A stretch of DNA of 64,000 nt, from the IMG/VR virus record IMGVR_UViG_3300028073_000008, positions 1-64,000 of that record. The stretch is one strand, 5' to 3'. Numbering within the stretch: position 1 is the first letter of the stretch; each line of letters starts with the position of its first letter. This document shows positions 40,624-56,608 of this stretch, piece by piece. The stretch is from a virus. Made by a program: the position numbers and the translations under genes. The notes under the pieces were generated by a model that had not been told where the DNA came from, ran no database searches, and worked only from the letters and a program-made list of their open reading frames with translations.

Positions 40624-42204
40624 ATGAGATTTTTCGAATTCAAACTTCCCAGTGCTAACTCACCTCTTTTAAACAAGATCGTAAGCTCTATTACAGATCT
40701 TGTAAATTCTGCTAAAAAACTGCCCGAAAATGATCCAGCACGTAAAGAAGCCGACGATCTCATTAATTCTCTTAAAAATAAAGCAGGTATAACAGAATCC
40801 GATGCTATTTCAGAATTAGAACATGATATGATTGTTGCCATAGCCAAAGCATTGATTTCGACAGGAAATCAACAGGCAACATTAAGTTTGATTGATATAG
40901 AAAAAATCAAGAAAAATATCGAAGTACAACAAAAAACTAAAAAGGTAGCACAAGCACATCAAGAGCTTGGTAAACAGCAATACGTAAAATCTCAAGAAAC
41001 TGATACTAGCGATCTTGACGAGATAGGAGCAGCGATCGAGAAAAAATTAGGAACACCTAAAGGATGGACTAAATCTAAAATCATTAATCCTTTATTGTCT
41101 GTAGGAATTGACAAAGAACTACTTTATGTGTTTCTAGATCAATGTGCGTCCGGCACGGCTATGAATTGGAATTTCAACGATGGAATTCACCCTATCACTG
41201 ATTTTAAATCGTTAATGTCTGACGAATCTAAAGAAATATTTTCTAACAAACAAGCTAAAGATATTCTTTTAACAGCCAGGTGGTCAGAAGCCGGCGGCGA
41301 AGGCGACGGAGAAGTGATGATAGGATTACTAGCAGATGCTAGCCATCCAGAGAAAGGTGATATCACAGTCAAAGGTGTTCCTTATGAAGTCAAAGCCACA
41401 GGATGGAGATTTAACAAAAAAGGCGATGTTAGTGGTACAGAAGCATGGTTAGATGCTGGTCCTTACTCGTCTAATATCGAAGGTGTTAAAGCTATCTTTA
41501 AGAAATTAATTAATGCCAGGGGTATTACTGCTTCTGAAGAAAATATAGCATTAGCTGATTTTAGAAAAGCAGGAACACAAAGTCTTAAACAGATAATGTC
41601 TCGTGTTAAAGATCCTGTTGATTTAATGTCGTCTTTACATTCTGCTGTGTTCCCTAATGCTGATAAAAATCAAATCAAACAGGCTTCTGAAAATATTGTA
41701 GCATCACAATATGATTACAGAGTATCGGCTAAGGAACAGGGATTACTAGCTATGGCAGAATATGCTGCCGAGCATGACAATTTTGGTTTTGTTTTTATCG
41801 ATAAAACTAATTTTAGTGGAATGATTTCTAAAAACGCAGTAGGAGAAAGTGAAGCATTTACATTTAGTTCTCCTATGACTATGTCAACAGCCAAAACCAC
41901 AGATGCTACAACTACTACTAAGAAAAGAAAAGCTAGTCCAGGAATAATGACTGGTTCTAGAGCACAAGCACAAAAGACTCTAGGTTGGCAATCTAAAAGA
42001 CAACCAGCACAACCAGCAGTATCTACAGCGTTAGCTAATGATCCAAAAAAGGGATTTTATTCTAAGTACGACAAAGCTACTATGGATCAAATCCTAACAA
42101 CTTTTAAAGATAGAAAACAATTAGTCGCCGATTACAAAAGTTTAACTCTGCCAGAGTTTGAAAAGAAGTATGTAGAACCCATACTTCAACCTAAACTTAT
42201 ATAA
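40624..42204 (+). CDS. Putative internal virion protein with PD-(D/E)xK-like motif
   Basis: TAAATA 40611; MRFFEF start; GDGE...KGDI...YEVK. Confidence 0.55.
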   Translation: MRFFEFKLPSANSPLLNKIVSSITDLVNSAKKLPENDPARKEADDLINSLKNKAGITESDAISELEHDMIVAIAKALISTGNQQATLSLIDIEKIKKNIEVQQKTKKVAQAHQELGKQQYVKSQETDTSDLDEIGAAIEKKLGTPKGWTKSKIINPLLSVGIDKELLYVFLDQCASGTAMNWNFNDGIHPITDFKSLMSDESKEIFSNKQAKDILLTARWSEAGGEGDGEVMIGLLADASHPEKGDITVKGVPYEVKATGWRFNKKGDVSGTEAWLDAGPYSSNIEGVKAIFKKLINARGITASEENIALADFRKAGTQSLKQIMSRVKDPVDLMSSLHSAVFPNADKNQIKQASENIVASQYDYRVSAKEQGLLAMAEYAAEHDNFGFVFIDKTNFSGMISKNAVGESEAFTFSSPMTMSTAKTTDATTTTKKRKASPGIMTGSRAQAQKTLGWQSKRQPAQPAVSTALANDPKKGFYSKYDKATMDQILTTFKDRKQLVADYKSLTLPEFEKKYVEPILQPKLI

Positions 42205-43273
42205 TCTTTTCCCAAGAAATATATTCAGGATCTGTAAATTCCTGTAGACGTGCTGTAGGATTTGTCTTGAACATGCCGCTGGCATATCTCACATAAACAT
42301 CTAGCAGTGCGTTATTCTCCGCACCAGGTTTGCCTATCTTGGCAACGAACAACTGTCCAGTACCGTCTGGATTCCCATATTTGAGATCATTAAGACTCAA
42401 TTCGCCTACTTGCTCTTTAGTAGGCACGAGGTAGAGACTGTCACCGTTGGTATAGAAGTAAGGAGTGTCTGTAAACTGTAGCAGATCAACTAATAGATCA
42501 CTGTTCTGTAGATGACCTTTGATCGTGGTTTCAAACTTTTCTGCTATCTCTGAAAAGTATGGTTTGATGAGATCTCTGTAAGTTTCCCAATTGGCATTAA
42601 ACCAATCACCGAACACACGCTGCCATGTCTTGTTCTGTTTGAGATTACTTAAAATCTGCTCTCTAGTAAAGTCTTTGATTTTTACACCATTACTGATCTC
42701 ATAACCAGTTTCTGTAGTCCTGATAAAATACTTGGCATCATCGGATGGCCATACATTGGCTACTGTGATATGATCTAGAAGATCAGTAAACACCTTGTGT
42801 TTGATAGATACCCATTGTTCGACATTGCCATATGTGACAAAGATATCTTCACCGCGTACAGTTTCCAAACCTAAAGATTTAGGTTTAAGGTTAGCCAACA
42901 TCTTAGAGCCAGCTTTTACCTGTATACCGCCTGTAGCAGCATCGTGGAATCGAACGTCATATGGACCACCGGCGATATTATTACCAGCTGCCCAACTGTA
43001 TTTGGTATTATTTGTAATACCGCCACGTTTTTCTAAAGTGGGTTTTTGTTGTTTGGCTGTAGCTGCCCAACTGTTGAATACTTCGGGTTCGTATGCTTTA
43101 GCCAAAAAAGTCTTTATATAACCATATACTTTGTTAGGATCATATAGCTTATCAGATGGCAGTGATTTTTCAGGTTCTAGTGGGTCGAAATTTCCGGAAC
43201 CTATAAGCCCGAATAGGTAACCCACTTCGCTGTTAAATCTTACTGTGTTTGTAGATTTACGTTCTTTAGTCAT
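42197..43273 (-). CDS. Hypothetical, restriction-endonuclease-like protein
   Basis: PYDVRF...GIQVK motif; lone minus-strand gene. Confidence 0.5.
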   Translation of the reverse strand: MTKERKSTNTVRFNSEVGYLFGLIGSGNFDPLEPEKSLPSDKLYDPNKVYGYIKTFLAKAYEPEVFNSWAATAKQQKPTLEKRGGITNNTKYSWAAGNNIAGGPYDVRFHDAATGGIQVKAGSKMLANLKPKSLGLETVRGEDIFVTYGNVEQWVSIKHKVFTDLLDHITVANVWPSDDAKYFIRTTETGYEISNGVKIKDFTREQILSNLKQNKTWQRVFGDWFNANWETYRDLIKPYFSEIAEKFETTIKGHLQNSDLLVDLLQFTDTPYFYTNGDSLYLVPTKEQVGELSLNDLKYGNPDGTGQLFVAKIGKPGAENNALLDVYVRYASGMFKTNPTARLQEFTDPEYISWEKII

Positions 43274-43379
43274 ATTACGTTAATTTTAGCATTATACAGA
43301 TAATTTGTAAAGTCTGTTTTTAATTTATAGCCGGGATTGGGTAAATACCTATAAGAAAGATTCGTCCCGGGAGTGAACA

Positions 43380-43823
43380 ATGTATAAAAGGATATGTATT
43401 CTTCTAGTAGCACTGACTACGTCAGCACAGGCTACAGAACTGGTACATCAATTCCAAAGTCCGGCCTTTATACCGGGCAATGGATACTCCTCTCATGTCC
43501 TAGCTATTGAGCAGCTAGAGTCGCAGCGCAAACAAAAGATCAAAGATGACGAAAAAGCAGCCATAGAAGCAGAAGCATTGGCTAAGAAAAATACGAACCT
43601 ATCCAAGTTTCTAGTAAACGTAGAAGCTAGAATATATGCGCAGTTATCTAAGCAGCTAGCAGATCAGCTGTTTGCCGAAGGTGGAGCTACGAACGGCACT
43701 ATGAACTTCCAGGGAACCAATATTAGTTGGGTTAAGACAGGCACAGAAGTTACTTTAACCATTATCGAATCTAATGGCAGCAAAACAGAAATAACAGTAC
43801 CTATAGCGAGCTTTTCTTTCTAA
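43380..43823 (+). CDS. csgF: Curli assembly protein CsgF-like
   Basis: Signal peptide then ELVHQFQSPAF..G.G; ARIYAQLSKQL; next to csgG. Confidence 0.8.
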   Translation: MYKRICILLVALTTSAQATELVHQFQSPAFIPGNGYSSHVLAIEQLESQRKQKIKDDEKAAIEAEALAKKNTNLSKFLVNVEARIYAQLSKQLADQLFAEGGATNGTMNFQGTNISWVKTGTEVTLTIIESNGSKTEITVPIASFSF

Positions 43824-45001
43824 TGAAAAAAATATTATTGATACCGCTGCTAGCATTGGTTTTGTCTGGGTGTGCTACAGTTCACATGGAACTGGCACAG
43901 GAAGAACCTGTGGCTATACAACCAAAACAAAACCTGTATGATAAGATACCACCATTAGATGGTCCACCTATGACTGTAGCAGTGTATGGTTTTACTGACA
44001 AAACTGGACAGATGAAACCCAATGATAAATTGGCAGTTTTCAGTAAAGCGGTAACACAAGGAGCAGAAGTATTTCTTATCAAAGCTCTACAAGATACCAA
44101 ATGGTTCCGTGTAGTAGAACGTGTTGGTCTTGATAATCTAATCAAAGAACGCCAGCTGATACGCAATCAACGAGAAGTATATGAAGGTAAAGATGCTAAA
44201 CCATTAGCACCTATGGTAGTAGCCGGAGTGATGATCGAAGGTGGTATCATAGGCTACGACAGTAACATTAGATCAGGTGGTAATGGTGCTAGATTCTTAG
44301 GTATCGGAGGAAGCCAACAATACAGAGTAGATGAGATAGTTATATCTATGCGTTTGATCAGTGTAAACACAGGAGAAGTTATATTAACTAACTCTGTTAG
44401 TAAAACAATTTATAGCACACAGCATAATGTGGGTGTGCTACGTTTCGTAGATGCAGGTACCAAAGCAGTAGAGCTAGAAAATGGTCAAGCATTAAACGAA
44501 CCAACTACTTATGCTGTTCGTGTTGCGATCGAACAGGCTGTTTATGACATGATCATGGACGGACAACGCAGAGGTTTTTGGCGTTTCAAACTTCCATTGC
44601 GTCAAACACCTCCTTTACCTGAGGAGAAAAAAGATGAGTTGGTTCAACCACAGAGCGAGACGCAGAAAGAAACCAATCCAGCCGCCGCCACAAGAGCAGC
44701 GCCTGCCGCAGAAACCAAACCAGCAGTAGTAGCAACTCCTGCTGAAACCAGATTAATAGTTACACCATCACAACAGGCACAATTAGTTGGCAAAAAAGGC
44801 AAAATGAAAGACACGATTTATGTTAGGAGAGAACCTAACGAAACTTCTACTCGAGTTTGGCTGTTTACAAAAAGCACAGTAGTAAATGTAACAGAAGAAA
44901 ACGGAGAGTGGATCAAAATAGTTGCCGAGGACGGCAAGAAAGGATATGTTAAGAGAGATAGCATAACTGTAGATAGTAGTACCAACAATACTGGTCGATA
45001 A
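43823..45001 (+). CDS. csgG: Curli secretion channel CsgG-like lipoprotein with C-terminal SH3b-like domain
   Basis: Lipobox LSGC; VAVYGFTDKTGQ, AVTQG, WFRVVERVGLDNLIKERQLIR, EGGIIGYD. Confidence 0.92.
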   Translation: MKKILLIPLLALVLSGCATVHMELAQEEPVAIQPKQNLYDKIPPLDGPPMTVAVYGFTDKTGQMKPNDKLAVFSKAVTQGAEVFLIKALQDTKWFRVVERVGLDNLIKERQLIRNQREVYEGKDAKPLAPMVVAGVMIEGGIIGYDSNIRSGGNGARFLGIGGSQQYRVDEIVISMRLISVNTGEVILTNSVSKTIYSTQHNVGVLRFVDAGTKAVELENGQALNEPTTYAVRVAIEQAVYDMIMDGQRRGFWRFKLPLRQTPPLPEEKKDELVQPQSETQKETNPAAATRAAPAAETKPAVVATPAETRLIVTPSQQAQLVGKKGKMKDTIYVRREPNETSTRVWLFTKSTVVNVTEENGEWIKIVAEDGKKGYVKRDSITVDSSTNNTGR

Positions 45002-45021
45002 ATTGGCCAAGGCGGAGCGAA

Positions 45022-45684
45022 ATGAAAACGAGAATGACGGGTATAGGCAAACCTAGCACAATTGCCTTAGTAGCGGCAATGCTATTTTCAAGCGTAGCAT
45101 TAGCCAACGATCTTTACATCGAACAATCGGGCGATGATACGGCTGTGACTATCTTACAAGACGGATCGCAGAATAAGATCGAAGGACTTACTCCTGGAGA
45201 TAATGCTTATATCGGAGGTGGCGGTAACGTTGTTAATATCCAACAAGTTGGCGCTAACAACCTTATTTCTCTATCTTTGAATAACCCTAACATGGGTGGA
45301 GTGGGTACAGGTACAGCTCTTACGATAAATCAGCTTGGTAACGATAATATTTCTACTGTACAATGCGGTACATCTTTGGCTGCTACCTGTAATGCTTCAG
45401 TTATCACTCAAAACATCACTGGTAGTAGCAACGATGTAACTCAGACCTTGACAGGTGGCGGTGCTTACAGCAGCGTGGTCAATGTCACAGGCGATTGGAC
45501 CAAAGTCACTCATACACAAACAGGTGCAGGAGCGCACACAGGAAACATCACCGTGAACAGCACAGCGACTTCGCTAGCTGATAAAAATAATGTATCCTTG
45601 ACGCAGACAGGAGCGATAGCGAAAAGTGCCACGATCAGCAGTTCAGGAGCTAATATTAATATTTCTGTTACTCAGCACGACTAA
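45022..45684 (+). CDS. Curlin-like repeat protein
   Basis: Signal peptide; repeats IEQSGDD, ILQDGSQN, IQQVGANN, INQLGNDN. Confidence 0.8.
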   Translation: MKTRMTGIGKPSTIALVAAMLFSSVALANDLYIEQSGDDTAVTILQDGSQNKIEGLTPGDNAYIGGGGNVVNIQQVGANNLISLSLNNPNMGGVGTGTALTINQLGNDNISTVQCGTSLAATCNASVITQNITGSSNDVTQTLTGGGAYSSVVNVTGDWTKVTHTQTGAGAHTGNITVNSTATSLADKNNVSLTQTGAIAKSATISSSGANINISVTQHD

Positions 45685-46723
45685 TGTCTGGGCAGGAGTA
45701 GGAACAGTAACTGAACAAACTGGTCCTACAGAAATATTTAGAGCTAAGAAATCTATACCTTCGAGCCTAAACACGGCTGTGGAAATGAATGACGCAGTTT
45801 CCACAGCCAAGGCTACTGCTCAGCTGACCTTTGAAGACAAGACTACAGTAAAGATCAACGAGCATAGCAAAATAGTCATAGATGATTTTGTCTACGATCC
45901 TAACAAAGGTTCAGGAAAACTGGCCATGAAGATGGCCATAGGCACTGCTCGCTATACGTCAGGACAGATAGCTAAAAATAGTCCACAACAGGTAGCCATC
46001 AATACTCCTACAGCCAGTGTAGGTGTGCGTGGTACTGATTTTTCTATGACTGTAGACGAGATGGGGCGCAGTCTTATCGTGCTATTACCTAGCTGCGATA
46101 AAAAAGGCTGTGTAACTGGTGCTATCGAAGTGCGCAATGAAGGAGGTGTTGTCATATTAGATGTTCCTTTCCAAGCTACCATGGTCAACACTGCTTATCA
46201 AGCACCTAGCCAACCAGTGGTAGTTAGATTAGATCAAGCTAGTATCAGTAATATGTTGATCATCAGTAAACCAGCAGAAATACAAGATGACGGTAGTGAA
46301 CATAAAAAAGCTCTAAGAGAAAGAGGACTACTTGACTTTGATAAACTAGATGTAGATCTATTGAAATATACCAAGCTAGATGAAAATAAACTAGATGATA
46401 ACAGAGCACTAGATCGTAACGATCTTAATGCTGACCTACTGGCTTTTTATGCGTGGAACGAGTTAGACGCACAGAATAAAACACTGTTAGCTAATGACAT
46501 GGATAATAGTCTGTTACCTAACTATAATGCTGCTAGCGGCCTATTATATTATTTCAATGAAGATCAAAGCAAAGTCACGCTATACCGTGTGACTAATCAT
46601 ACAGCCGTAGTCACACTGCCTACTACACAAAATACTACGCTGAGTATAAACCAAGACGGCCAGCAGGTCGTACAGCAGGTAAACAAGGGTGCTACATCCA
46701 CTATTACTATAACTCAAAAGTAA
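45626..46723 (+). CDS. Exported FecR-domain protein
   Basis: Signal peptide overlapping curlin end; FEDKTTV, INTPTASVGVRGTDF; curlin-like tail. Confidence 0.85.
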   Translation: MPRSAVQELILIFLLLSTTNVWAGVGTVTEQTGPTEIFRAKKSIPSSLNTAVEMNDAVSTAKATAQLTFEDKTTVKINEHSKIVIDDFVYDPNKGSGKLAMKMAIGTARYTSGQIAKNSPQQVAINTPTASVGVRGTDFSMTVDEMGRSLIVLLPSCDKKGCVTGAIEVRNEGGVVILDVPFQATMVNTAYQAPSQPVVVRLDQASISNMLIISKPAEIQDDGSEHKKALRERGLLDFDKLDVDLLKYTKLDENKLDDNRALDRNDLNADLLAFYAWNELDAQNKTLLANDMDNSLLPNYNAASGLLYYFNEDQSKVTLYRVTNHTAVVTLPTTQNTTLSINQDGQQVVQQVNKGATSTITITQK

Positions 46724-46781
46724 TAGTTTAATTTTTACCGACTTATCTTTAAATAACTATACTAACCGGGAGCGAATCGGT

Positions 46782-49343
46782 ATGAAAATTAAAAGAAGCC
46801 TTCTGGCGGTTGCCATCACCGCCTTATTGTCAGGTACGGCCATGGCGCAAAACTATGGTTTCGAGGATGGAACATTAACAGGATGGACAGTCGGTGGTGA
46901 CACTGGCGCTACTCCAACAACAGGTACTGTAAATGGTTTTACAGGCACTGTTAACAATATTACACAACAAGGCATGGGAGTTAAGCTCTTAAACGGTCCT
47001 ATCGCCTTCCAAGCAGGTTCACACCCAGCAGTAGGTACGCCAGGTACTGATTATTATCAACCTGCTGTTACTCCAAAGACTTGGGTATTCAGTCCTTATG
47101 GTAACTACATGGTTGGTCTACAACCTAACCAAGGACAAAGCTCAGCAGCATTTACAGCATTGGGTCTAACAAGTTCTTCTGTAGCAGCTATCAATCAAAC
47201 GATCACGGATCAAAAGAACGCAGCTGGTTATGGTATGACTGGTATCACAACAGCAGCATGGATCTATCGTGATGTTGCTATGACCCCAGGAACTACTGTG
47301 AAGTTTGGTTGGAACTATATCGGTACAGACTATGTGCCATTCAATGATGGTTCTATAGCATCATTGGTCCACACAACGGACAACACCATACTAGGTACGG
47401 TCAACAACTATAATGCTCAGTATGCGTTATTAGGTTTTACTAATCCTAAGACAGGTGACTACTCAGCAGGAACATTTGGTTCTACTGGTTGGCAGATCGC
47501 TACATTCGATGTCACAACAGCAGGTACATATAAACTAGGTTTTGCTTCTTTCAACCTAGGCGACACTGCTCTTAGTCCACTACTGCTAGTAGACGAATGG
47601 CAAGGCGCTACAGTGACCTGTGTCACAGGAACTTGTACTACATTTGGTGTAGTTGCTCCTAACAACTCAACAGCACCAACAGCAGACTCAGCCGGTGGTT
47701 CGGGTTCGGGAGGCAGTGGTTCGAGTGGAAGTGGATCAGGTGGCGGATCAAGTGGTCCTACATTAGTCAACAATATCACTGGCGCGGTAACAACAGCGAC
47801 TCTAGACACAGCACCTAAGTTCAACGGTGGTACACTGACAGTATCAGACGGTGACATTATTGTCAAGAACTTTACTGTGGCAACAGCTGGTGGTACGATC
47901 AACACAGGTACAGGCGCAGTATCACAGATAAACGGTGTCATCAGCAATGACGGAACAGATACCGCAGGTCCTATAACAGTAACAGGTAACGGCACACTTA
48001 AACTAAATGCTGCCAATACCTACACAGGCGCGACCACTATCGACAATGGCGCTACAGTGGTAGCACTGAACTCAAATGCTCTAGGGGGAAGTTCCAGTGT
48101 TACTAACAATGGTGGCTTGAACATCACTGGCACAGGCGCTACTGGCCTTAATGTAAACAGCTACACACAGGGTGCTAATGGCGGCTTGATCGGAAAACTA
48201 TGGGCTAACGGAGATGCTACTAAAATCAACTCCACAGGTCCAGTGAGCCTAGCAGGCACATACTCATTGTATGGCGATGCTACAGGCACATATAGCATTG
48301 GCAAGTATCCATTGATCACCGGATCTAGTGTGTCTGGACAGTTTGACACATTTGCCAGCAACTTGGGCAACTACACAGATCTAGGCTACTACTTAAAGTA
48401 TACACCAACAGGCGTACAACTTTGGATGACTCCTAATGCTGCTGCCACACAGGCCAGCATCGACACAACGGCCAACAGCATTAGCAGTAACAACAGCCTA
48501 CAGGCCAGCGTGTTGAACAGCAGTCTAGGCAATGACTCTAATATGTACGGTGATACAAACAGTTCTGTAACAGTCAGTTACGGTAACACTAAAGTTGGCA
48601 CAGGCGATCTAAACACAGCAGGCATCACAGCTTCTAAGAAGATCAACGACAACTGGCGTGTTGGCGTGTTTGCTGATCAACCATTGAACAGCTCAACAGT
48701 CGGTGGCGTCACACAAAAGAACGACATGGGCTTTGGTGGATTTGTAGCATGGAATCAAAATGCTGATCAGACAGGTCTAGGCATACAGGCCAGTGCTGTA
48801 CAGAACAAAGGCGAAGCTACCATTACACGTACAGGTCCAGAGACAGGTGTAGGCAAGGCAGCTACAGAAGGCAAGGCATATCAAGTTAAAGTTTCCTATG
48901 CTAAACCAATCAATGAAAAAACTACCGTAACTCCTTATGTTGGCATCCGTCAGACCGAAGTCAAGACAAATGGTTACACAGAACAAGGCGCGGTGTTTCC
49001 TTTGACTGTGAACAGCAATACACATTCAACGACAGATGCTCTAGCAGGTGTTGGTGTTAGCCATAAACTAACAGACAAACTAACAGCTACAGGCGCAGTT
49101 GGTGTTACACAGAATGTGAGTTCTAGCACAGGCAGCTTCAGCGGCACAAGCGACATTGCTGGCAAAGGCACATTCAACAACGCATTACCTAACAATGGTA
49201 AGACCAGCGTTGGTGTAGGTGCTGGACTAAGCTATCAGCTAACCAAGAACTCAAAGATCGGCGTAAATGTAGGTTTCCAAGACAAGACACCTAGCGGTAA
49301 TAATGTAGGATCAATAGGCATAAGCTATACACTAGCGTTCTAA
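46782..49343 (+). CDS. Autotransporter-like surface protein
   Basis: Signal peptide; Gly/Ser linker; passenger repeat GNGTLKLNAANTYTGATTI; C-terminal beta-barrel ending YTLAF. Confidence 0.8.
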   Translation: MKIKRSLLAVAITALLSGTAMAQNYGFEDGTLTGWTVGGDTGATPTTGTVNGFTGTVNNITQQGMGVKLLNGPIAFQAGSHPAVGTPGTDYYQPAVTPKTWVFSPYGNYMVGLQPNQGQSSAAFTALGLTSSSVAAINQTITDQKNAAGYGMTGITTAAWIYRDVAMTPGTTVKFGWNYIGTDYVPFNDGSIASLVHTTDNTILGTVNNYNAQYALLGFTNPKTGDYSAGTFGSTGWQIATFDVTTAGTYKLGFASFNLGDTALSPLLLVDEWQGATVTCVTGTCTTFGVVAPNNSTAPTADSAGGSGSGGSGSSGSGSGGGSSGPTLVNNITGAVTTATLDTAPKFNGGTLTVSDGDIIVKNFTVATAGGTINTGTGAVSQINGVISNDGTDTAGPITVTGNGTLKLNAANTYTGATTIDNGATVVALNSNALGGSSSVTNNGGLNITGTGATGLNVNSYTQGANGGLIGKLWANGDATKINSTGPVSLAGTYSLYGDATGTYSIGKYPLITGSSVSGQFDTFASNLGNYTDLGYYLKYTPTGVQLWMTPNAAATQASIDTTANSISSNNSLQASVLNSSLGNDSNMYGDTNSSVTVSYGNTKVGTGDLNTAGITASKKINDNWRVGVFADQPLNSSTVGGVTQKNDMGFGGFVAWNQNADQTGLGIQASAVQNKGEATITRTGPETGVGKAATEGKAYQVKVSYAKPINEKTTVTPYVGIRQTEVKTNGYTEQGAVFPLTVNSNTHSTTDALAGVGVSHKLTDKLTATGAVGVTQNVSSSTGSFSGTSDIAGKGTFNNALPNNGKTSVGVGAGLSYQLTKNSKIGVNVGFQDKTPSGNNVGSIGISYTLAF

Positions 49344-49369
49344 TAAATATTAGCAGAAGGGAGACAGCC

Positions 49370-49693
49370 ATGCGTACAAAAATATACATGGCGTTCCTAT
49401 TTTGCTTGACCAGCTCTATAGCCAACGCCGATTCGGTATTATTTCAAACTAACAAACCAGTCGTTTGTTCTGATTTAAAATCTATTGTTGAAACTTTAGG
49501 TGAGTCTGAAATAGATGAAAAGCCTATCTTCAAAGGTAAAGATGATAGAGCTACTTATTTTCTCAGTCTGAATAAGAAAACCGGATCCTGGACTATGGTA
49601 CAATTTAGAGAAGATGTTGCCTGTATCCTAGGATTTGGTAAAGATGGAAAGACTTATAATCTAGACGAAGTATTATCTAAGCGTAGAGATTAA
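49370..49693 (+). CDS. Small exported protein
   Basis: Signal peptide; KPVVC...GSWT...ACIL. Confidence 0.65.
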   Translation: MRTKIYMAFLFCLTSSIANADSVLFQTNKPVVCSDLKSIVETLGESEIDEKPIFKGKDDRATYFLSLNKKTGSWTMVQFREDVACILGFGKDGKTYNLDEVLSKRRD

Positions 49694-50523
49694 AGATTAG
49701 CTTTCCACCCAAAAAGGGCCGTCTTTGCGTTCTTGCGCAATATGTCGGTCCTTTCTTGTGATCGCTTCTCGCTCAATTCTTTTTTGATAAACTCTGGATC
49801 TAGGATAGTTTTCTCTGTCAAAATACCTTGTATGAATCCTTCAGTGACATCTAACGGAACGCCGTTTGTAAATGTATCAAATAACTTTTGTGCGAACACT
49901 TCGTGATTGCTAAGACACATGTGATTAAATCTAGGATCAAACATCTTGATCACTCTGTTATAATCATCACCGTCTTTGATATTTGGTATTTCTTTGAAGC
50001 TTACACATTCGGTTAGATCGCCCGTACCGAATATGATATGTTCATATTCTTTTGCTATAAAGTAATCCTGCTTGTGGGCGTTGATAACTATAGGTCTACG
50101 CCATTTGCGGAAGTATGTATTGTAAGCCAACCATCCCAATCTGTTTTCTACTTCTGTACTATCTAATAAAGGACGTTGTATGTGTTTATCCCACAGTTCT
50201 CCGGCCTTGGCCAGATCCCAAGATACCTTGCCTTCTCTAGCATAGACATGTAGGTGCGCGGGTTTACCGATAGAAGGGTCATCGTGTACGTACCATTTAC
50301 GAGCAGGATGCGTCATTACGATGACCTGATAATCATCGGGTTGTATTTCTTTACACAACGCATGTTGCGCAGCAAAAGTATATTCTTGGCTGCTGCCTAA
50401 CACACCATAATTTCTAACTTCAGTGATACCTAATTTAGTCGCCAACAGTCCCGGCCAGCAATTCATCTCTCCTTTTGTCTCGAAGTTGACAAAACTATCT
50501 CCCCACACCCACAATCTACTCAT
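49690..50523 (-). CDS. SGNH/GDSL-like hydrolase-fold protein (paralog 2)
   Basis: WVWGDSF, RFNHMCLSNH. Confidence 0.65.
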   Translation of the reverse strand: MSRLWVWGDSFVNFETKGEMNCWPGLLATKLGITEVRNYGVLGSSQEYTFAAQHALCKEIQPDDYQVIVMTHPARKWYVHDDPSIGKPAHLHVYAREGKVSWDLAKAGELWDKHIQRPLLDSTEVENRLGWLAYNTYFRKWRRPIVINAHKQDYFIAKEYEHIIFGTGDLTECVSFKEIPNIKDGDDYNRVIKMFDPRFNHMCLSNHEVFAQKLFDTFTNGVPLDVTEGFIQGILTEKTILDPEFIKKELSEKRSQERTDILRKNAKTALFGWKANL

Positions 50524-51347
50524 TTTCTTAACCCTAACTTTTCTGCCCAGGGCACACGGAATTCGTTTTTGCTCTGTTTGAATACTTCTACCCTAGCTTT
50601 ACATAATTCATTTTCTACAAATGTTGAATCGTCTATACGAGACCTATCTATGATGTCTGCGATAAATCCTGTGGTTAGATCTATATCTTTTCCTTCGGTC
50701 ATATATGATTTTATCTTATCAGCTAGTATAGCATGATTGGATAAGCACATATGATTGTACCTGACATCTCTACCTTTGAATAATGAACTACGAAACTCGT
50801 AGGTTTTAGGTCCTATAGGTTCGCCGTCGGCTATATCATTTAGACAACCGTTAGCAAAAGTTAAACCAGGATATAACGAACGATCTTCTATAAATTGATC
50901 AAAGGCTAACAGGATAATAGGTTTGCGCCATCCATGTATAGTAACCATATGATTCAACCAACCTAGCCTATGTTCTAATTGTAGACTGTCTAGTTGCATT
51001 CTCTGTATATGTTTGATATAAAGTTCTGCTGCTTTAAGTCTTTCTGGTTCGATTACTTTGTCAATGTCCGCGATATGGATATTAGTCGCTCCAGGTCTAT
51101 CTTCAAAAAACCAATATCTGCTAGGATGTGTAAGTACAATTAGTAACTGATCATCTTTGGTAAGATTTGGACGGAGTCTGTTTATACCCTCCCATGACCA
51201 ATCTTGGCTAACGCCTGCTTGGCTGTAGTTCTTTAGCGTATAGCCGAGATCATTGGCTACTTTGTAAAACCATACATTTGGATTGTCGTCGTCGGGCTCT
51301 GAAAAACTGAAACTGTCTCCAGTGACCCATAATGTTGAATTAGGCAT
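50520..51347 (-). CDS. SGNH/GDSL-like hydrolase-fold protein (paralog 1)
   Basis: WVTGDSF, RYNHMCLSNH. Confidence 0.65.
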   Translation of the reverse strand: MPNSTLWVTGDSFSFSEPDDDNPNVWFYKVANDLGYTLKNYSQAGVSQDWSWEGINRLRPNLTKDDQLLIVLTHPSRYWFFEDRPGATNIHIADIDKVIEPERLKAAELYIKHIQRMQLDSLQLEHRLGWLNHMVTIHGWRKPIILLAFDQFIEDRSLYPGLTFANGCLNDIADGEPIGPKTYEFRSSLFKGRDVRYNHMCLSNHAILADKIKSYMTEGKDIDLTTGFIADIIDRSRIDDSTFVENELCKARVEVFKQSKNEFRVPWAEKLGLRK

Positions 51348-51431
51348 AATCTAATTTATGCTTTAGAAATTTTACGTTCAAAGATCTAGGTTTTATGTGT
51401 GCTAAATATTCTAGCATTATGGATTCTACGT

Positions 51432-51584
51432 ATGAAACTTAAAACTTCTGTGATTATCTTGATATCAAGTATATTACTATCCGGCTGCGCAGGCATACGT
51501 TTCTGCGAAAAAGAAGAATCATCTAAAACTGGTTGTCGTCCTTGGGATCCTGCTACGAGATCAGGGGGGTCAGTTAGATCATGA
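51432..51584 (+). CDS. Small lipoprotein coupled to the cyclase gene
   Basis: Lipobox LSGC; TAAATA 51403; ATGA overlap. Confidence 0.6.
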   Translation: MKLKTSVIILISSILLSGCAGIRFCEKEESSKTGCRPWDPATRSGGSVRS

Positions 51585-53650
51585 AAAAGTTTCTAAAAAA
51601 TATTTTATTATCGCCATGGACAGCATTGCTAACATTGGCCCTTGTATTAAGTATAAGAATTACTGATCCTGCCTTTGTAGAAAGTATAAGACTACGTTAT
51701 TTTGATACTCTGATAGCGGCCAAAGAACCGACAGTTAATAATATCTTCACAGTAAATATCGACGAAGCAGCATTAGACAAATATGGACAGTGGCCTTTAC
51801 CTAGAGCAGAATATGCCAAAATCATACGAGATCTATACCAGAGGGGAGCAGGTCTTGTGGTACTTAATGTACTCATGCCAGAACCGGACCGTACAGGTGG
51901 TGACGGTGCGCTGGGTCAAGCTCTAAAAGAATTTCCTGTAGTGCTAGGATCTGCTCCTAGCCAAAAGACTAAAAATACTCCTAAAGTTCCCGGCAGTGCT
52001 GTACTCAATCCAGAATGGTTAGATCAGATTGTACAATATCCTGGATTGATAGCCAACGTTCCGCAAATAGAACAAAACGCTGCTGGAGTGGGTATCACTA
52101 ATACACTGCCAGAGATAGATGGTGTTAACCGTAGGATACCATTGATAGTCGCAGTAGACGATAAATTGTATCCAGGATTATCTTTAGAAACTCTGCGTGT
52201 AGCTACAGGCAATGATACATTCCAGGTTAAATTGTTCGAAGGCGGAGTTGAAAAAATGCGCTTGCCGGGAGATATCGGTATCATACCTACAGATAATTTA
52301 GGCCGTGTATGGATAGATTGGAGTCAAAAATCTCAGTCAATGAGTCTTTCTGATGCCATGTCTATAAAAACGTTCGAAGGTGCTATAGTAGTTTTAGGAC
52401 CAACCGCAGCTGGCATAGGCAATCCTGTGCCTACTAGTATAGGTGCTGTGTTTCCTCACGAAGTACAGGCTGCTGTCATCGGCACTATGATCAATAAAAC
52501 AAACATACAGCGACCTGATTGGGCAGACGGAGCAGAGATACTTACATTGGCCTTGTTGGGATTGATAATCATTGGAATGTCGAGGTGGACTTATGTGGGT
52601 ATTTTTACAACTGTTGGTGGTATCGCTGCCGTTGTTTTTGCCAGTCGTTATGGTTTCACTAACTACCAAATCTTGGGAGACGCGACGGCAAGCACAGCTG
52701 GCCTTGTGCTCGTGGCTCTTCATACTTATGGGATTAAGTTTATAAGCGAGTTTTTACAAAAGCAACAGATCAAGAAACAATTCGGCACTTATCTTAGCCC
52801 AGACCTTGTGGCAAGACTACAACGTCAACCAGAACTACTACAGCTAGGAGGTGATAGCCGTGAACTGTCAATCATGTTTACAGATGTTAGAGGATTTACT
52901 AGTATTTCTGAACACTACGGTAAAGATGTTCAAGGACTTACTAAGATCATGAATCGTTATATGACTGCCATGACTAAAAAGATTCTAGAAAATCATGGCA
53001 CGTTAGACAAGTACATCGGAGACGCACAGATGGCGTTCTGGAATGCTCCGTTGGATAATGCTAAACACGCCAAAGATGCTGTAAAGACAGCTTTAGAAAT
53101 GTTAGGAAGTCTCGATGAGTTTAATAGAGAAATCAAAGAAGAAGGTGTCCCACCTTTTGGTATGGGGCTGGGAATTAATACTGATGTTGTCGTGGTTGGC
53201 AATATGGGCAGCGATCAGCGGTTTGACTATACTTGCCTTGGTGATGGAGTCAACCTTGCGTCAAGGTTAGAAGGACAGAGCAAGCCTTACCATGTTGCTA
53301 TGGTTATAGGACCTAAGACACACGAATATGTCAAAGATGAATACTATTGCCTAGAACTAGATTGTCTAGCTGTCAAAGGCAAGCACGAAGGAGTTAATGT
53401 TTATACAGTGTTGGGTCGTATAGACGAATTAAAAATCCCATTATCAGACACACAGATGCACGCTGCCATGTTACATCTATACAGAAATCAAAACTTCGTA
53501 AGAGCTATTACATTCTGTAAAGATCTCAAAGGTCGTTTCAACGGAGCGATGGATGGGTACTACGATATGTGGATAGAACGCTGCGAGGAGATGAAAGATG
53601 CAGGACTACCAAAAGATTGGGACGGAGTATTTAGGACTAATACAAAGTAA
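51581..53650 (+). CDS. CHASE2-domain transmembrane class III adenylate cyclase
   Basis: GQWPLPR (CHASE2), TM helices, FTDVRGFT, DKYIGD, DYTCLGDGVNLASRLEG. Confidence 0.93.
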   Translation: MKKFLKNILLSPWTALLTLALVLSIRITDPAFVESIRLRYFDTLIAAKEPTVNNIFTVNIDEAALDKYGQWPLPRAEYAKIIRDLYQRGAGLVVLNVLMPEPDRTGGDGALGQALKEFPVVLGSAPSQKTKNTPKVPGSAVLNPEWLDQIVQYPGLIANVPQIEQNAAGVGITNTLPEIDGVNRRIPLIVAVDDKLYPGLSLETLRVATGNDTFQVKLFEGGVEKMRLPGDIGIIPTDNLGRVWIDWSQKSQSMSLSDAMSIKTFEGAIVVLGPTAAGIGNPVPTSIGAVFPHEVQAAVIGTMINKTNIQRPDWADGAEILTLALLGLIIIGMSRWTYVGIFTTVGGIAAVVFASRYGFTNYQILGDATASTAGLVLVALHTYGIKFISEFLQKQQIKKQFGTYLSPDLVARLQRQPELLQLGGDSRELSIMFTDVRGFTSISEHYGKDVQGLTKIMNRYMTAMTKKILENHGTLDKYIGDAQMAFWNAPLDNAKHAKDAVKTALEMLGSLDEFNREIKEEGVPPFGMGLGINTDVVVVGNMGSDQRFDYTCLGDGVNLASRLEGQSKPYHVAMVIGPKTHEYVKDEYYCLELDCLAVKGKHEGVNVYTVLGRIDELKIPLSDTQMHAAMLHLYRNQNFVRAITFCKDLKGRFNGAMDGYYDMWIERCEEMKDAGLPKDWDGVFRTNTK

Positions 53651-53824: not shown

Positions 53825-54124
53825 TTAAGAAGCTTTCTTTTCTTCTTCGACTTCGTTGATTTTCTTTTCAGCTTCTACACGCTCATGATCTATAGTCTTA
53901 CCTCTAAGGTGTAGGACTACATCTACTTTCTGATTGAGCCTAATAAGATCATTATCTAACATACGGATACGATCTATTAGAGCTATCAACACAGTATTAG
54001 CATTGCTCAGGACCGGCTTGACTTCTTTCGTGGCCCATGTCCAGACGTAATATATCATATAGCCCATGCCACCTGCTGCTACTATCGGAAAACCATACTT
54101 GTTGATTAGCTCTACTAAATCCAT
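53825..54124 (-). CDS. Small membrane protein, paralog of 54868-55149
   Basis: YGFPIVAAGG; LIDRIRMLDNDLIRL. Confidence 0.7.
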   Translation of the reverse strand: MDLVELINKYGFPIVAAGGMGYMIYYVWTWATKEVKPVLSNANTVLIALIDRIRMLDNDLIRLNQKVDVVLHLRGKTIDHERVEAEKKINEVEEEKKAS

Positions 54125-54133
54125 AACTCTACC

Positions 54134-54667
54134 TCAAATGAATAAGAAATATCCTTGTGCTAACAAAGCAGCACCTAGAGCACCTACCCATATGCTGGCT
54201 TTGAACATGCGATTATCTACAGCCAAGATACTGGCAGACAATAGCACGATAGCCAATTGAAACAGCATACCAGAAAATGTTAACCAAGGACCATGTGCTC
54301 TGGCCGCATCTCGTTCTGCTTCTAATTGTTTAGCTTTGGCTAATAGCTCTTTCTTGCCTTCGCCTGTTAGTGGATCGCTTTCATAGCGATCAATCTTGGC
54401 CTGTAGTTGATCTATTCTAGACTTGTTACCTACTTGTCTAGCATCTTCTAATTGGCCTTCTGCTATGCTCTGTTTGATGCTCTTGGCTTGATAAAAGCCA
54501 TAGGTGTTAGTTGCTTGTAAAAGTTTAGTCTGTGCTGTACCACTGAATCCGTTAGCTAGATAAGTGTTACCCGCTAGGAACAGGGCCATGATAACGATGA
54601 CTAATCCTGCTTTATCTTTGATAGCAGCTTCTCTTTCGCTGCGCGATGGCTTTTTTACTTCTTCCAT
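54134..54667 (-). CDS. DUF4337-like membrane protein
   Basis: YGFYQAKSIK; FQLAIVLLSASIL. Confidence 0.75.
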   Translation of the reverse strand: MEEVKKPSRSEREAAIKDKAGLVIVIMALFLAGNTYLANGFSGTAQTKLLQATNTYGFYQAKSIKQSIAEGQLEDARQVGNKSRIDQLQAKIDRYESDPLTGEGKKELLAKAKQLEAERDAARAHGPWLTFSGMLFQLAIVLLSASILAVDNRMFKASIWVGALGAALLAQGYFLFI

Positions 54668-54867: not shown

Positions 54868-55149
54868 TTAGTCCCTTCTGGCATCATTTTTACCGTCTGC
54901 TCTAGCGATCCTGTTAATATCAGGTTTGAGACCCAATGCGTTAGATACGACAGTGTCTATTCTTATGACATCATGATTCATAGTCTTGACACGGTTGTCT
55001 AGAGCTGTGATGATTCCAGCTAGGCCCTGTACAGAACCCATAACACCTGCCAAAATAAACTTTAGTGTTAGAAAAATGAAATAGCCGCCCGCACAAGCTG
55101 CTGCTATTGGAAATCCTACTTCTGCTACTAATTTGAAAAATTCTGTCAT
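54868..55149 (-). CDS. Small membrane protein
   Basis: GGAG SD; VGFPIAAA; LDNRVKTMNHDVIRID. Confidence 0.7.
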   Translation of the reverse strand: MTEFFKLVAEVGFPIAAACAGGYFIFLTLKFILAGVMGSVQGLAGIITALDNRVKTMNHDVIRIDTVVSNALGLKPDINRIARADGKNDARRD

Positions 55150-55178
55150 GTTCTCGCTCCGTACATGGTATTTATTAA

Positions 55179-55207
55179 TTGACAAGCCCAAAATACGAAG
55201 CTATAAT
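55179..55207 (+). promoter_or_regulatory. Sigma70-type promoter (consensus)
   Basis: TTGACA-N17-TATAAT. Confidence 0.8.
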
Positions 55208-55235: not shown

Positions 55236-55811
55236 ATGAAAAACGAACTAGATAACTATCTCTGTCAGACTTATCCCAAGATTTTTGCGGATAGACACAA
55301 GCCCATGACTGAGACTTGTATGTGCTGGGGATTTGAATGCGGTGACGGTTGGTTCAATATCCTCAACCATCTGTGTTCTAACATACAGCATCATATCGAT
55401 TGGTCCATTAAAAACAATCAGTGGGATCAAGATTGGAATGATGCTGTACACGCAGGACTAGCTGGTAATCTAGAACCTCTAGAAAAGCGATTTGGATCGT
55501 TTGTTAATGCTGATGAACGTATCCAAGAAGCACTAGAAAATGGTGTCCGTACAGTCAGGCCAGTTATTCCTCAAGTAATAGCACAGCAGGTCAAAGAAAA
55601 GTTTGGTACTTTGCGTTTCTATTATCAAGGAGGCGACGACTACATCAACGGGTTAGTTGCTATGGCCGAAAGCCTAAGCGGTAATACCTGCGAAACTTGC
55701 GGCAAGCCAGGACACAGGACTAGTGGTGGTTGGATCAAGACTGCGTGTGTAGAACACGGTGGTAAAGATCTAACCGAAGAAGACTATCTTAAACAAGGTT
55801 TCGAAGGATGA
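55236..55811 (+). CDS. Phage protein with C-terminal zinc ribbon
   Basis: ECGDGW, QVKEKFGTLRFY, CETCG...C..H. Confidence 0.75.
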   Translation: MKNELDNYLCQTYPKIFADRHKPMTETCMCWGFECGDGWFNILNHLCSNIQHHIDWSIKNNQWDQDWNDAVHAGLAGNLEPLEKRFGSFVNADERIQEALENGVRTVRPVIPQVIAQQVKEKFGTLRFYYQGGDDYINGLVAMAESLSGNTCETCGKPGHRTSGGWIKTACVEHGGKDLTEEDYLKQGFEG

Positions 55812-56608
55812 AAATAAAATTAGTATCAGATCTACATCTTGAGTTTTCCGATATAAACATCAAGAACGACAACGACTACGATGTGCTCATCCTAGGCGGC
55901 GATATCCTTGTGGCTGAATATCTCAAGAGAGAAAACGGAGAGCGAGGCAAACGTTTTCATGATTTCCTCAAGCGTGTGAGCTTTCAGTTTCCGCACGTAG
56001 TCTATGTTGCCGGTAACCACGAGTTTTACAATGGCAAGTTTTATGACTGCCTTGATATATTAGAAAGTCTTAAAGACCTTTATCCTAACATCTACTTCTT
56101 GGAAAATGGTGCTAGGACTATAGGCGATGTGACTTTCATCGGCTGTACTCTTTGGACAGATATGAACAAGGCTGATCCACTTACACTGTTACATGTCAGC
56201 CAAATGATGAATGACTTTAGAGCTATCCGTAATGACAAGGCCGGATATCGTCCTTGGTCTACGGAGGACGCAGTAAGACGTCATAGACTCAGTCTTGAGT
56301 ACATCAGCGCAGTGGTAGCCGAAAAGCATGATCAAAAGTTCGTAGTGGTCGGACATCATAGTCCTAGCCATCAGAGCATACATCCACAGTATCATTACGA
56401 TCAGATCATGAACGGTGGATACCACAGCAACTTAGATGAGTTTATCTTAGATAGACCGCAGATTAAACTTTGGACACATGGTCATACCCATCATCCTTTC
56501 GATTATATGATCGGTGAGACTCGTATAGTATGTAACCCACGTGGCTATGAAGATGGCCACTACAGCGAGAACACAGGATGGGATCCAAATATAGTAATCG
56601 AAGTCTAG
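55808..56608 (+). CDS. Calcineurin-like metallophosphoesterase
   Basis: SDLHLE, GGDI, GNHE, HHSP, HGHTH, NPRGY. Confidence 0.9.
   Translation: MKIKLVSDLHLEFSDINIKNDNDYDVLILGGDILVAEYLKRENGERGKRFHDFLKRVSFQFPHVVYVAGNHEFYNGKFYDCLDILESLKDLYPNIYFLENGARTIGDVTFIGCTLWTDMNKADPLTLLHVSQMMNDFRAIRNDKAGYRPWSTEDAVRRHRLSLEYISAVVAEKHDQKFVVVGHHSPSHQSIHPQYHYDQIMNGGYHSNLDEFILDRPQIKLWTHGHTHHPFDYMIGETRIVCNPRGYEDGHYSENTGWDPNIVIEV

Follow-up and report, generated by a model that had tools for sequence, protein, structure and literature searches.

Why would a bacteriophage encode, side by side, the secretion channel of bacterial curli, a FecR-fold protein, an adhesin and a membrane-bound adenylate cyclase? The question is raised by positions 43,380 to 53,650 of a 64,000-nucleotide stretch of viral DNA (the window; positions 1 to 64,000 of the IMG/VR virus record IMGVR_UViG_3300028073_000008), which is part of a 169-kb record with a CheckV completeness of ~48%. 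An earlier note, made from the letters alone, had recognized here genes for CsgF, CsgG, a curlin-like protein, a FecR domain, an autotransporter and a CHASE2 cyclase, and we reproduced every one of these calls with Pfam, the curlin call being sub-threshold in the window copy. It is a near certainty that the region is a variant of the published viral curli (type VIII secretion) block, with an autotransporter in the adhesin slot, a CsgG carrying an SH3 domain and extra cargo genes. The core module is already in print and the present copy adds a variant, not a discovery. What goes beyond the published block is the modular nature of the adhesin slot, the recurrence in bacteria of the FecR and CHASE2-cyclase pair, and a C-terminal motif common to the FecR-fold protein and the curlins. 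We propose a composite function, in which the infected cell would display fibers and an adhesin and would operate an envelope sensor making cyclic AMP (cAMP), a proposal for which we regard the case as evenly poised.

Linkage of the csg genes, the FecR-fold gene and the cyclase

Wittmers et al. (2022, PMC9599517) had described the block as such in pelagiphages of the myo- and podovirus types, where one or two "histidine kinase" genes precede csgF and are followed by genes for CsgF, CsgG, CsgA/B, FecR, a frequent, optional second CsgA/B and an adenylate cyclase. According to that study, the block originated in alphaproteobacteria, has passed from one virus family to another (the cyclase often being included) and is expressed, as judged from metatranscriptomes; in ocean viromes, ~0.1% of the assembled viral proteins were estimated to be viral curli proteins. 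The study offered the same functional guesses as the earlier note, and its text makes no mention of CHASE2, autotransporters, PA14, lectins or adhesins. No CsgE, CsgC or CsgD is reported in the viral blocks that it covers, and no search aimed at these was made in the present record. In two other studies, the "curli operon" is discussed and neither FecR nor the cyclase is named (Zaragoza-Solas et al. 2020, PMC7029224; Buchholz et al. 2022, PMC9004378). PHROGs already has families for the CsgF, CsgG, FecR and cyclase proteins, and tblastn placed the cyclase and CsgG a few kilobases apart in Methylophilales phage Melnitz and Pelagibacter phage HTVC008M, where the GenBank order (MZ577097, 50731-56876; KC465899, 7562-13807) runs CsgF, CsgG, curlin-associated protein, FecR or hypothetical protein, second curlin-associated or hypothetical protein, and cyclase. 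For the region studied here, megablast returned no nucleotide match to phage records, its relatives being detectable at the protein level only.

On the plus strand of the window, csgF (43380..43823) encodes a 147-residue CsgF-like protein with a signal peptide, a candidate secreted channel cap or nucleation factor (Pfam CsgF, E 1e-19, 71.5 bits against a cut-off of 25.8; phrog_35372, E 5e-48), whose mature N terminus, HQFQSPAFIPGNG, we take to resemble the Escherichia coli CsgF segment that inserts into CsgG. The adjacent csgG (43823..45001, +) encodes a 392-residue outer-membrane lipoprotein channel with a lipobox (Pfam CsgG, E 1e-54), which aligns over its full length with the E. coli CsgG structures (6lqh/4uv3, E 6e-51) and ends in a linker and an SH3 domain (SH3_3, E 6e-9). 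This long form (>345 residues) occurs in ~25 relatives besides the window, in a family ranging from 254 to 429 residues, and the long forms cover the SH3 extension of the window. Only the Phe aligned with E. coli Phe56 is kept in the constriction loop, Tyr51 and Asn55 being replaced by Asn and Val, respectively; all three are residues to which we presume a role in the E. coli constriction. A curlin-repeat gene (C1) follows csgG, the FecR gene stands directly after it, and a second slot (C2) and the cyclase complete the block. Inspection by eye shows a signal peptide or a lipobox on every plus-strand product, in line with the export signals claimed for them in the earlier note.

Linkage was counted in distinct loci only, each flanked by 8 kb or more on either side of the anchor gene. 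With the cyclase as query, IMG/VR yielded >570 confirmed relatives, from which 80 loci were retained (loci are labeled L below); with CsgG as query, it yielded 42 closer relatives, and the open reading frames (ORFs) of 88 viral loci were clustered for gene-order comparison. CsgF, CsgG and FecR were present together in 40/40 cyclase-centered loci, and FecR and the cyclase in all 19 CsgG-centered loci. The cyclase and FecR genes do, therefore, co-occur with the csg genes in relatives, diverged and rearranged ones among them, including Melnitz, HTVC008M and inverted blocks. The canonical order is CsgF, CsgG, C1 (190 to 365 residues), FecR (335 to 401 residues), C2 (155 to 853 residues), zero to five variable genes and the cyclase, with 7.8 kb between csgG and the cyclase gene in the window, against a median of 5 kb (range, 2.4 to 10 kb) across 99 loci.

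These data bear on the alternative that survives best, namely, that two unrelated functions share a hypervariable island: the csg, curlin and adhesin genes would alter the cell surface (aggregation, "sibling capture," superinfection exclusion), the cyclase would raise cAMP on an external cue, and FecR would serve one of the two with no cross talk. The variable genes between FecR and the cyclase speak for it, as do a TAAATA motif of its own upstream of the cyclase gene in 28% of relatives and the position of the csg-FecR block on the opposite strand from the cyclase gene in nine loci. CsgF, CsgG and FecR covary in their identity to the window (r 0.74 to 0.91), and the cyclase does not vary with them (r about -0.1), figures that are only indicative, the compared loci having been retrieved by similarity to window proteins and being no random sample. 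Individual loci show the same independence: L105 shares 88% identity with the window in FecR and 59% in the cyclase, and L004 shares 56% and 73%, respectively. The cyclase gene thus recombines independently of FecR, which argues against tight co-adaptation. Moreover, bacterial curli operons exist without FecR and the cyclase (Wittmers et al., PMC9599517), and no CsgG was found in the four bacterial genomes with the closest cyclases. Against unrelated functions stands the co-occurrence in 59/59 loci despite recombination and inversion; because the block is mosaic and yet always retains the cyclase nearby, we argue for selection on the co-occurrence itself. The transfer of the block between virus families, frequently with the cyclase included (PMC9599517), also counts against them, and the independent adjacency of FecR and CHASE2 in bacteria, beside secretion or adhesin genes, speaks for a functional pair. 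Altogether, we consider two unrelated functions rather unlikely.

The putative promoters are compatible with this organization. All four TAAATA motifs listed in the earlier note exist, 21 to 33 nt before plus-strand starts, at 43342..43347 (33 nt upstream of csgF), 46750..46755 (27 nt upstream of the autotransporter gene), 49344..49349 (21 nt upstream of a gene for a 107-residue exported protein) and 51403..51408 (24 nt upstream of the ATG at 51432 of a lipoprotein gene). Fifteen of the 32 plus-strand copies in the window lie at most 40 nt upstream of a plus-strand gene, against ~1.6 expected by area. The full T4 late octamer, TATAAATA, is not enriched in the window (3 copies versus 4.5 expected), so that the hexamer alone is informative, and the "late" timing of these promoters would follow from T4 biology by analogy. 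In 43 of 70 distinct relatives (61%), csgF has TAAATA at most 60 nt upstream, and for csgG, the curlin gene and the FecR gene the figure is 0 to 3%; csgF-csgG-curlin-FecR, therefore, fits a single transcription unit. Further TAAATA-type promoters would precede the autotransporter gene, the gene for the small exported protein and the lipoprotein-cyclase pair.

Candidate curlin subunit and modular adhesin slot

The C1 gene (45022..45684, +) encodes a 220-residue, Q/N/G-rich repeat protein, the candidate fiber subunit; no further curlin-repeat signal was obtained from the 169-kb record. In the window, this protein scores 18.1 bits against Curlin_rpt, under the cut-off of 20.7; 53 of the 62 C1 orthologues in related loci match the same family (best E 6e-17), and on these profile matches we take the C1 family to be truly curlin. 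This contradicts the claim that these phages lack fiber genes (Buchholz et al. 2022, PMC9004378).

The slot after FecR contains no second curlin-repeat gene in the window and is occupied by an autotransporter gene (46782..49343, +), whose 853-residue product is devoid of curlin repeats (Pfam Autotransporter, E 1e-20, 77.5 bits on the genome). All features of a type Va autotransporter are present, i.e., a signal peptide, a passenger and a C-terminal beta-domain with an aromatic last residue. The protein begins with a head resembling a carbohydrate-binding module (CBM; residues ~22 to 300), followed by a Gly/Ser linker, beta-helix-type passenger repeats and a C-terminal barrel ending in Phe. Residues 3 to 300 share 37 to 44% identity with the heads of curlin-tailed C2 proteins from 10+ loci, and the barrel resembles that of L033. 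Heads of C2 proteins in the relatives are PA14 (HTVC008M, L031), F5/8 type C (discoidin; L044) or the window-type domain. Their tails are of two kinds: curlin repeats ending in a conserved Cys-loop motif, found in at least 46 of the 62 C2 proteins, and an autotransporter barrel with an aromatic end, found in the window, L005, L031 (which has both kinds), L033, L040 and L044. Among the closer relatives, the barrel carries other heads in L107, L109, L122 and L130, and the window-type head comes without a barrel match in L110, L118, L120 and L143. Judged from these comparisons, the "second curlin" slot is a modular adhesin in which lectin-like heads are joined to either a curlin tail or an autotransporter barrel.

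The best structural matches of a model of the window head are carbohydrate-binding beta-sandwiches, among them CBM61, CBM4, CBM16 and HpiC1/DUF642. In the ESM Atlas, the head is linked to viral curlin-repeat clusters, to viral autotransporter clusters (117 members) and, more weakly, to choice-of-anchor L. Sequence searches of the PDB with the autotransporter head and with the FecR profile gave nothing real, the head matches falling on the Gly/Ser linker. Since the 169-kb record holds no other curlin-repeat or autotransporter gene, the adhesin head would be displayed in this phage by type V, not type VIII, secretion. We consider it likely that the infected cell displays fibers or an adhesin.

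The curlin and adhesin genes also speak against lysis timing, a second alternative in which CsgG-CsgF would be a gated outer-membrane pore (pinholin- or secretin-like) timing progeny release, with the cyclase and FecR sensing when to open. It was proposed for Melnitz from modeling and synteny (Buchholz et al. 2022, PMC9004378), and both the lack of any reported CsgE-type gate in viral blocks (PMC9599517) and the late-type promoter motifs would suit it. The proposal assumed, however, that there are no fiber genes, whereas the block has conserved genes for curlin-repeat proteins and for lectin-headed adhesins. As the inner membrane cannot be depolarized by an outer-membrane pore either, we regard this role as very improbable.

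FecR-fold protein and CHASE2 cyclase in phages and bacteria

The FecR gene (45626..46723, +) encodes an exported 365-residue protein (Pfam FecR, E 2e-11). Its AlphaFold2 model, built from a 70-sequence alignment (mean predicted local distance difference test [pLDDT], 84), comprises a signal peptide, a confident beta-domain (residues 25 to 200), a low-confidence linker of ~100 residues and a confident C-terminal domain of six strands whose starts are spaced 21 residues apart, the protein ending in ITITQK. Residues 53 to 217 superpose on the cell-surface signaling domain of PupR (6ovk; Z 15.6, root-mean-square deviation [rmsd] 2.6 over 136 residues) and on the anti-sigma protein BDI_1681 (Z 14.6). 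Residues 22 to 117 match 5ix9, the N-terminal domain of MpIBP, which is an RTX-adhesin retention domain and the template for modeling the periplasmic retention module of LapA, with a score (Z 6.9, rmsd 2.4 over 73 residues) within the range of common small beta-folds. An assignment of 5ix9 to the C-terminal domain was wrong, as the alignment falls on residues 22 to 117, and that domain has weak Ig-like matches only (Z 2.6 to 3.0). NCBIfam gave nothing for the protein beyond far-sub-threshold matches to Leptospira Lsa33/LipL45. The C terminus itself is more telling: an [ILVT]x[ILVT]xQ ending, at most 3 residues from the C terminus, is found in 87% of FecR orthologues, 69% of C2 proteins, 39% of C1 proteins and 1% of other ORFs. 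Reading the FecR tail as a curlin repeat was rejected, the profile comparison with C1 (hhalign) being weak (probability 13%, E 0.002).

The earlier note took FecR domains to relay outer-membrane signals, and of this the fold alone holds. Neither an anti-sigma domain nor a membrane helix was found in the FecR protein, where only a signal peptide of ~23 residues precedes the beta-domain; the protein, therefore, shares the fold and is no FecR-type regulator. For the same reason, it is hardly credible that an open CsgG channel admits cofactors or siderophores while FecR senses iron as in the Fec system, an alternative offered by Wittmers et al. (PMC9599517) and suggested by a fold that is that of iron-siderophore signaling regulators, given that a cleavable signal peptide replaces the cytoplasmic anti-sigma domain and membrane helix of FecR/PupR and that the neighbors of bacterial FecR and CHASE2 genes proved to be adhesins and secretion systems, not iron uptake genes.

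The predicted partner of this protein is the product of the last gene of the block (51581..53650, +), a 689-residue CHASE2 receptor adenylate cyclase (CHASE2, 2e-40; Guanylate_cyc, 2e-19; phrog_35576, E 1e-225, 752 bits). Its CHASE2 domain spans residues 18 to 329 with hydrophobic stretches on both sides, and a C-terminal extension of ~80 to 110 residues follows the catalytic domain. The catalytic motifs FTDVRGFT, KYIGDA and DYTCLGDGVNLASRLE are intact; D435, K477, D481 and R562 are invariant in 12 phage cyclase homologues, as are the metal, Lys, Asn and Arg motif residues altogether, to which we assign the roles that we take to be general in class III cyclases (two metal Asp, the specificity Lys with its partner, and the Asn and Arg of the transition state). 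The specificity for ATP had been attributed in the earlier note to the K of KYIGD and the D of DYT. The Lys stands, and its partner is probably the Thr of DYT, which aligns with the Thr of Pseudomonas aeruginosa CyaB (3r5g) and Spirulina CyaC (1wc0/1wc1), presumably the partner of the specificity Lys in class IIIb cyclases. The enzyme is, hence, probably of the Lys-Thr class IIIb type, not Lys-Asp, and is predicted to make cAMP.

Standalone homologues (99 to 128 residues) of the last ~110 residues of the cyclase lie near csgF in ~14 related phages (L004:4062-4448, L005:2580-2954, L020:4968-5288, L044:3522-3863 and ~10 more loci); no such standalone domain was found in the 169-kb record. A calcineurin-like metallophosphoesterase gene (phrog_1649; 55808-56608, +) lies 2 kb downstream of the cyclase gene, with homologues near the block in 23 loci. 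It was considered as a cAMP phosphodiesterase and dropped, having a generic Metallophos match only and no PDB relative.

The closest cellular relatives of the cyclase are found in SAR116 (~30% identity), phage-bacterium identity being ~25 to 31% overall. Matches filed as bacterial at 38 to 53% identity would have meant that bacteria possess the csg-FecR-cyclase block in full; they are phage contigs that ended up in bins of metagenome-assembled genomes (MAGs), as the csg genes and small membrane proteins encoded on them indicate. These contigs (L084-L091), filed under Rhodobacteraceae, Chitinophagaceae, Bacteroidetes, Luteolibacter and Legionellales, mostly carry the full phage block and the small membrane proteins, the shorter ones carrying the cyclase with a small membrane-protein gene only, and are almost certainly mis-binned. 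In genuine SAR116 loci (L092:4476-12748, L093:1388-8980, L094:3462-8706), the cyclase gene is followed by a gene for a 225- to 234-residue FecR-domain protein and preceded by genes for a C39-peptidase ATP-binding cassette exporter and an HlyD-type protein. Across these three loci, the exporter and the HlyD-type protein are each seen with a cyclic nucleotide-binding domain, and L092 also encodes a TolC-type protein; the operon has the look of a type I secretion system that the cyclic nucleotide from the neighboring cyclase would gate.

To place this pair in a wider frame, 151 alphaproteobacterial genomes were sampled, 63 of which encode CHASE2 proteins, and 20 loci from 20 genomes were fetched and scanned with phage-derived hidden Markov models, which may undercount FecR neighbors. 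The CHASE2 protein is a cyclase in all 20 loci, and a FecR-domain gene lies within ~4 kb in 6 of them, as it does in 4/4 SAR116 loci and in one Desulfuromonas locus, where the neighbor combines FecR with a TbpB-like barrel domain. CsgG and CsgF were found in none of the 20 loci. Two of the FecR neighbors, in two alphaproteobacterial genomes, are giant proteins encoded on the minus strand, divergently from the CHASE2 cyclase genes (L151:1-3777, L152:227-4348), in which cadherin-like and Big_9 repeats come after an N-terminal FecR domain, with RTX repeats in addition in L152; their FecR domain may be the periplasmic end of a secreted adhesin. Related pairings have been published. In the Burkholderia "BiofilmReg" operon and in P. 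aeruginosa, a gene for a LysM/FecR protein adjoins that for a CHASE2 histidine kinase, and such operons affect biofilm formation (PMC5192318). In Sinorhizobium meliloti, the CHASE2 cyclases CyaD1/CyaD2/CyaK drive the cAMP-Clr regulon, of which the FecR-domain protein SMc02177 is a member (PMC5498481).

We propose the following model of the composite function. The CsgG-CsgF outer-membrane channel would be assembled in the infected Gram-negative cell, and the C1 curlin-repeat subunit would be exported through it to form fibers. A carbohydrate-binding-type head, fused to curlin repeats in most relatives and to its own autotransporter barrel here, would be shown on the surface. The exported FecR-fold protein and the inner-membrane CHASE2 adenylate cyclase would together constitute a two-part envelope sensor, in which FecR couples the state of the fiber or of the secretion apparatus to the periplasmic CHASE2 domain; the latter would set cAMP synthesis, and cAMP would act on host receptors. 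We suggest FecR as the coupler because its C-terminal motif is common with the curlins and its N-terminal part is like signaling domains and an adhesin retention plug. Whether FecR and CHASE2 form a functional pair is, in our judgment, a matter on which belief and doubt are about equal.

Several observations weigh against this model. No clumping of Melnitz-infected cells was seen (Buchholz et al. 2022, PMC9004378). The model of the adhesin head is of moderate quality (pLDDT 63, predicted template modeling score 0.70), the resemblance of FecR to 5ix9 is of a kind that small beta-folds commonly reach, and the profile similarity of the FecR tail to C1 is weak. With a FecR neighbor in only 6/20 sampled bacterial CHASE2 cyclase loci, the pair is recurrent, not obligate. 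No cNMP_binding match for a cyclic nucleotide receptor was obtained in the 169-kb record, itself about half complete. The loci compared were selected by similarity, and the cyclase recombines on its own. As for the view of the earlier note that the whole region remodels the cell surface and signals through cAMP, the co-occurrence of FecR, the cyclase and the csg genes makes it reasonable and Wittmers et al. (2022, PMC9599517) advanced the same hypotheses, but three points weaken it: the autotransporter is one of two alternative anchors in a variable slot and no conserved member, the inverted gene pair before the cyclase is a lineage-specific insert, and the record yielded no cyclic nucleotide receptor.

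A more specific version of the model would make FecR a tether: its curlin-like C terminus would exit via CsgG and join the fiber, while the bulky FecR domain would stay in the periplasm, retained like an RTX-adhesin retention module, and touch CHASE2, so that fiber assembly, load or attachment would be read out as cAMP. We consider both the tether and this readout decidedly unlikely, and mention them for what they would imply. CHASE2 sensors, whose ligands are listed as unknown, would gain a general type of input, i.e., the periplasmic end of a surface fiber or adhesin, and the giant FecR-cadherin(-RTX) proteins beside alphaproteobacterial CHASE2 cyclases would fit the same scheme.

The block, found widely among aquatic phages, gives infected cells functions absent from their hosts, and its role bears on how abundant phages alter cell surfaces, aggregation and carbon flow. 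The present analysis makes the question more testable, with an adhesin of exchangeable heads and anchors, a FecR protein that would be no iron regulator and would form with the CHASE2 cyclase a sensor pair also placed by bacteria beside secretion and adhesin genes, and a curlin-type C terminus on FecR.

Neighboring genes and comparison with known systems

Between the adhesin slot and the cyclase, the window carries cargo that varies among relatives. A small exported protein of 107 residues (49370..49693, +; signal peptide by eye) has no family match (Pfam and NCBIfam among those searched) and is an accessory with homologues in 14 related loci, usually adjoining the cyclase gene. The two-gene inverted insert, the lipoprotein and then the cyclase follow as described in the earlier note. 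The inverted pair (49690..51347, -), two paralogous orphan genes for proteins of 277 and 275 residues, lies outside the conserved module: it matches no family in Pfam, PHROGs or NCBIfam, has only 5 related clusters among 5.8 billion proteins, and is absent from 80+ related loci save for one homologue in the same slot of L105. An N-terminal GDSF resembling the SGNH motif suggested SGNH hydrolases, an assignment dropped for want of family support and with almost no homologues. The small lipoprotein (51432..51584, +; lipobox LLSGC) overlaps the cyclase start; its real start is likely the ATG at 51432, giving ~50 residues, because the TAAATA motif at 51403 points to it. By tblastn, homologues lie directly upstream of the cyclase gene in at least 8 loci (L042, L043, L045, L050, L052, L061, L067, L130).

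Downstream of the cyclase, two paralogous genes encode small membrane/coiled-coil proteins of phrog_18771, called h here, of 99 residues (53825..54124, -; E 1e-31) and 107 residues (54868..55191, -; E 1.5e-32). The family has an N-terminal membrane helix and a coiled coil, occurs as two copies per locus in 77 loci, always adjoining the module, and is present in 40/40 well-flanked cyclase-centered loci. The h genes are usually found just upstream of csgF, and in the window downstream of the cyclase on the opposite strand. They are possibly those that Wittmers et al. call "HK," which is a guess on our part; no kinase domain was found in the phrog_18771 proteins. Between the two paralogs lies a gene for a DUF4337 protein (54134-54667, -; E 1.5e-29), with homologues in 7 related loci. 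Directly upstream of csgF, positions 40624-43273 hold two large ORFs of 526 residues (+) and 358 residues (-), which have no Pfam, PHROGs or NCBIfam match and almost no homologues in related loci.

The phage itself is large and T4-like, with 42% G+C, and probably freshwater; its T4-type functions include a ribonucleotide reductase, a tail spike and a clamp-loader-like ATPase. The exact protein of positions 49690-50523 (-) is recorded on 37 contigs, the largest of 354,650 bp, suggesting a genome about twice the size of the 169-kb record, so that the phage is probably a jumbo phage. A transfer-messenger RNA (tmRNA) gene lies at 28055-28495, and a tmRNA gene likewise immediately precedes the curli block of Melnitz. 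At 22831-22904, a tRNA with anticodon CUA is labeled tRNA-Pyl by ARAGORN, i.e., an amber suppressor.

Among known systems, the nearest are the blocks of Melnitz and HTVC008M, with which the window shares gene order, proteins 38 to 48% identical and two small membrane-protein genes alongside. Unlike the published viral blocks, the window has (i) an autotransporter with a homologous head in the second-curlin slot, (ii) a CsgG with an SH3 extension, (iii) an orphan pair, a small exported protein and a lipoprotein between that slot and the cyclase, and (iv) its small membrane-protein genes downstream and on the other strand. Compared with E. coli curli (4uv3, 6l7a, 6si7), the phage block shares a full-length CsgG, the CsgF family and curlin repeats in the C1 family, whereas FecR, the cyclase and the adhesin are extra. 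The window C2 protein is built like type Va autotransporter adhesins, with their signal peptide, beta-helix-type passenger repeats, Pfam beta-domain and C-terminal Phe; it differs in being phage encoded and in having a head common to curlin-tailed proteins of related phages.

As in the bacterial FecR and CHASE2 pairs, an exported FecR-fold protein is encoded beside a membrane CHASE2 sensor, with the same cyclase output in alphaproteobacteria, but the bacterial pair stands beside type I secretion genes or in giant cadherin/RTX-type adhesins and, in the loci and genomes examined, never beside CsgG. The phage FecR protein finally resembles FecR/PupR (6ovk) in the fold of its periplasmic domain and RTX-adhesin retention modules (MpIBP 5ix9, LapA) in the fold of its N-terminal half. 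In both of these systems, a conduit in the outer membrane is connected with a partner in the periplasm or the inner membrane; the phage protein differs from them in having no anti-sigma domain or membrane helix, and its predicted partner is a cyclase in place of a sigma factor or a protease.

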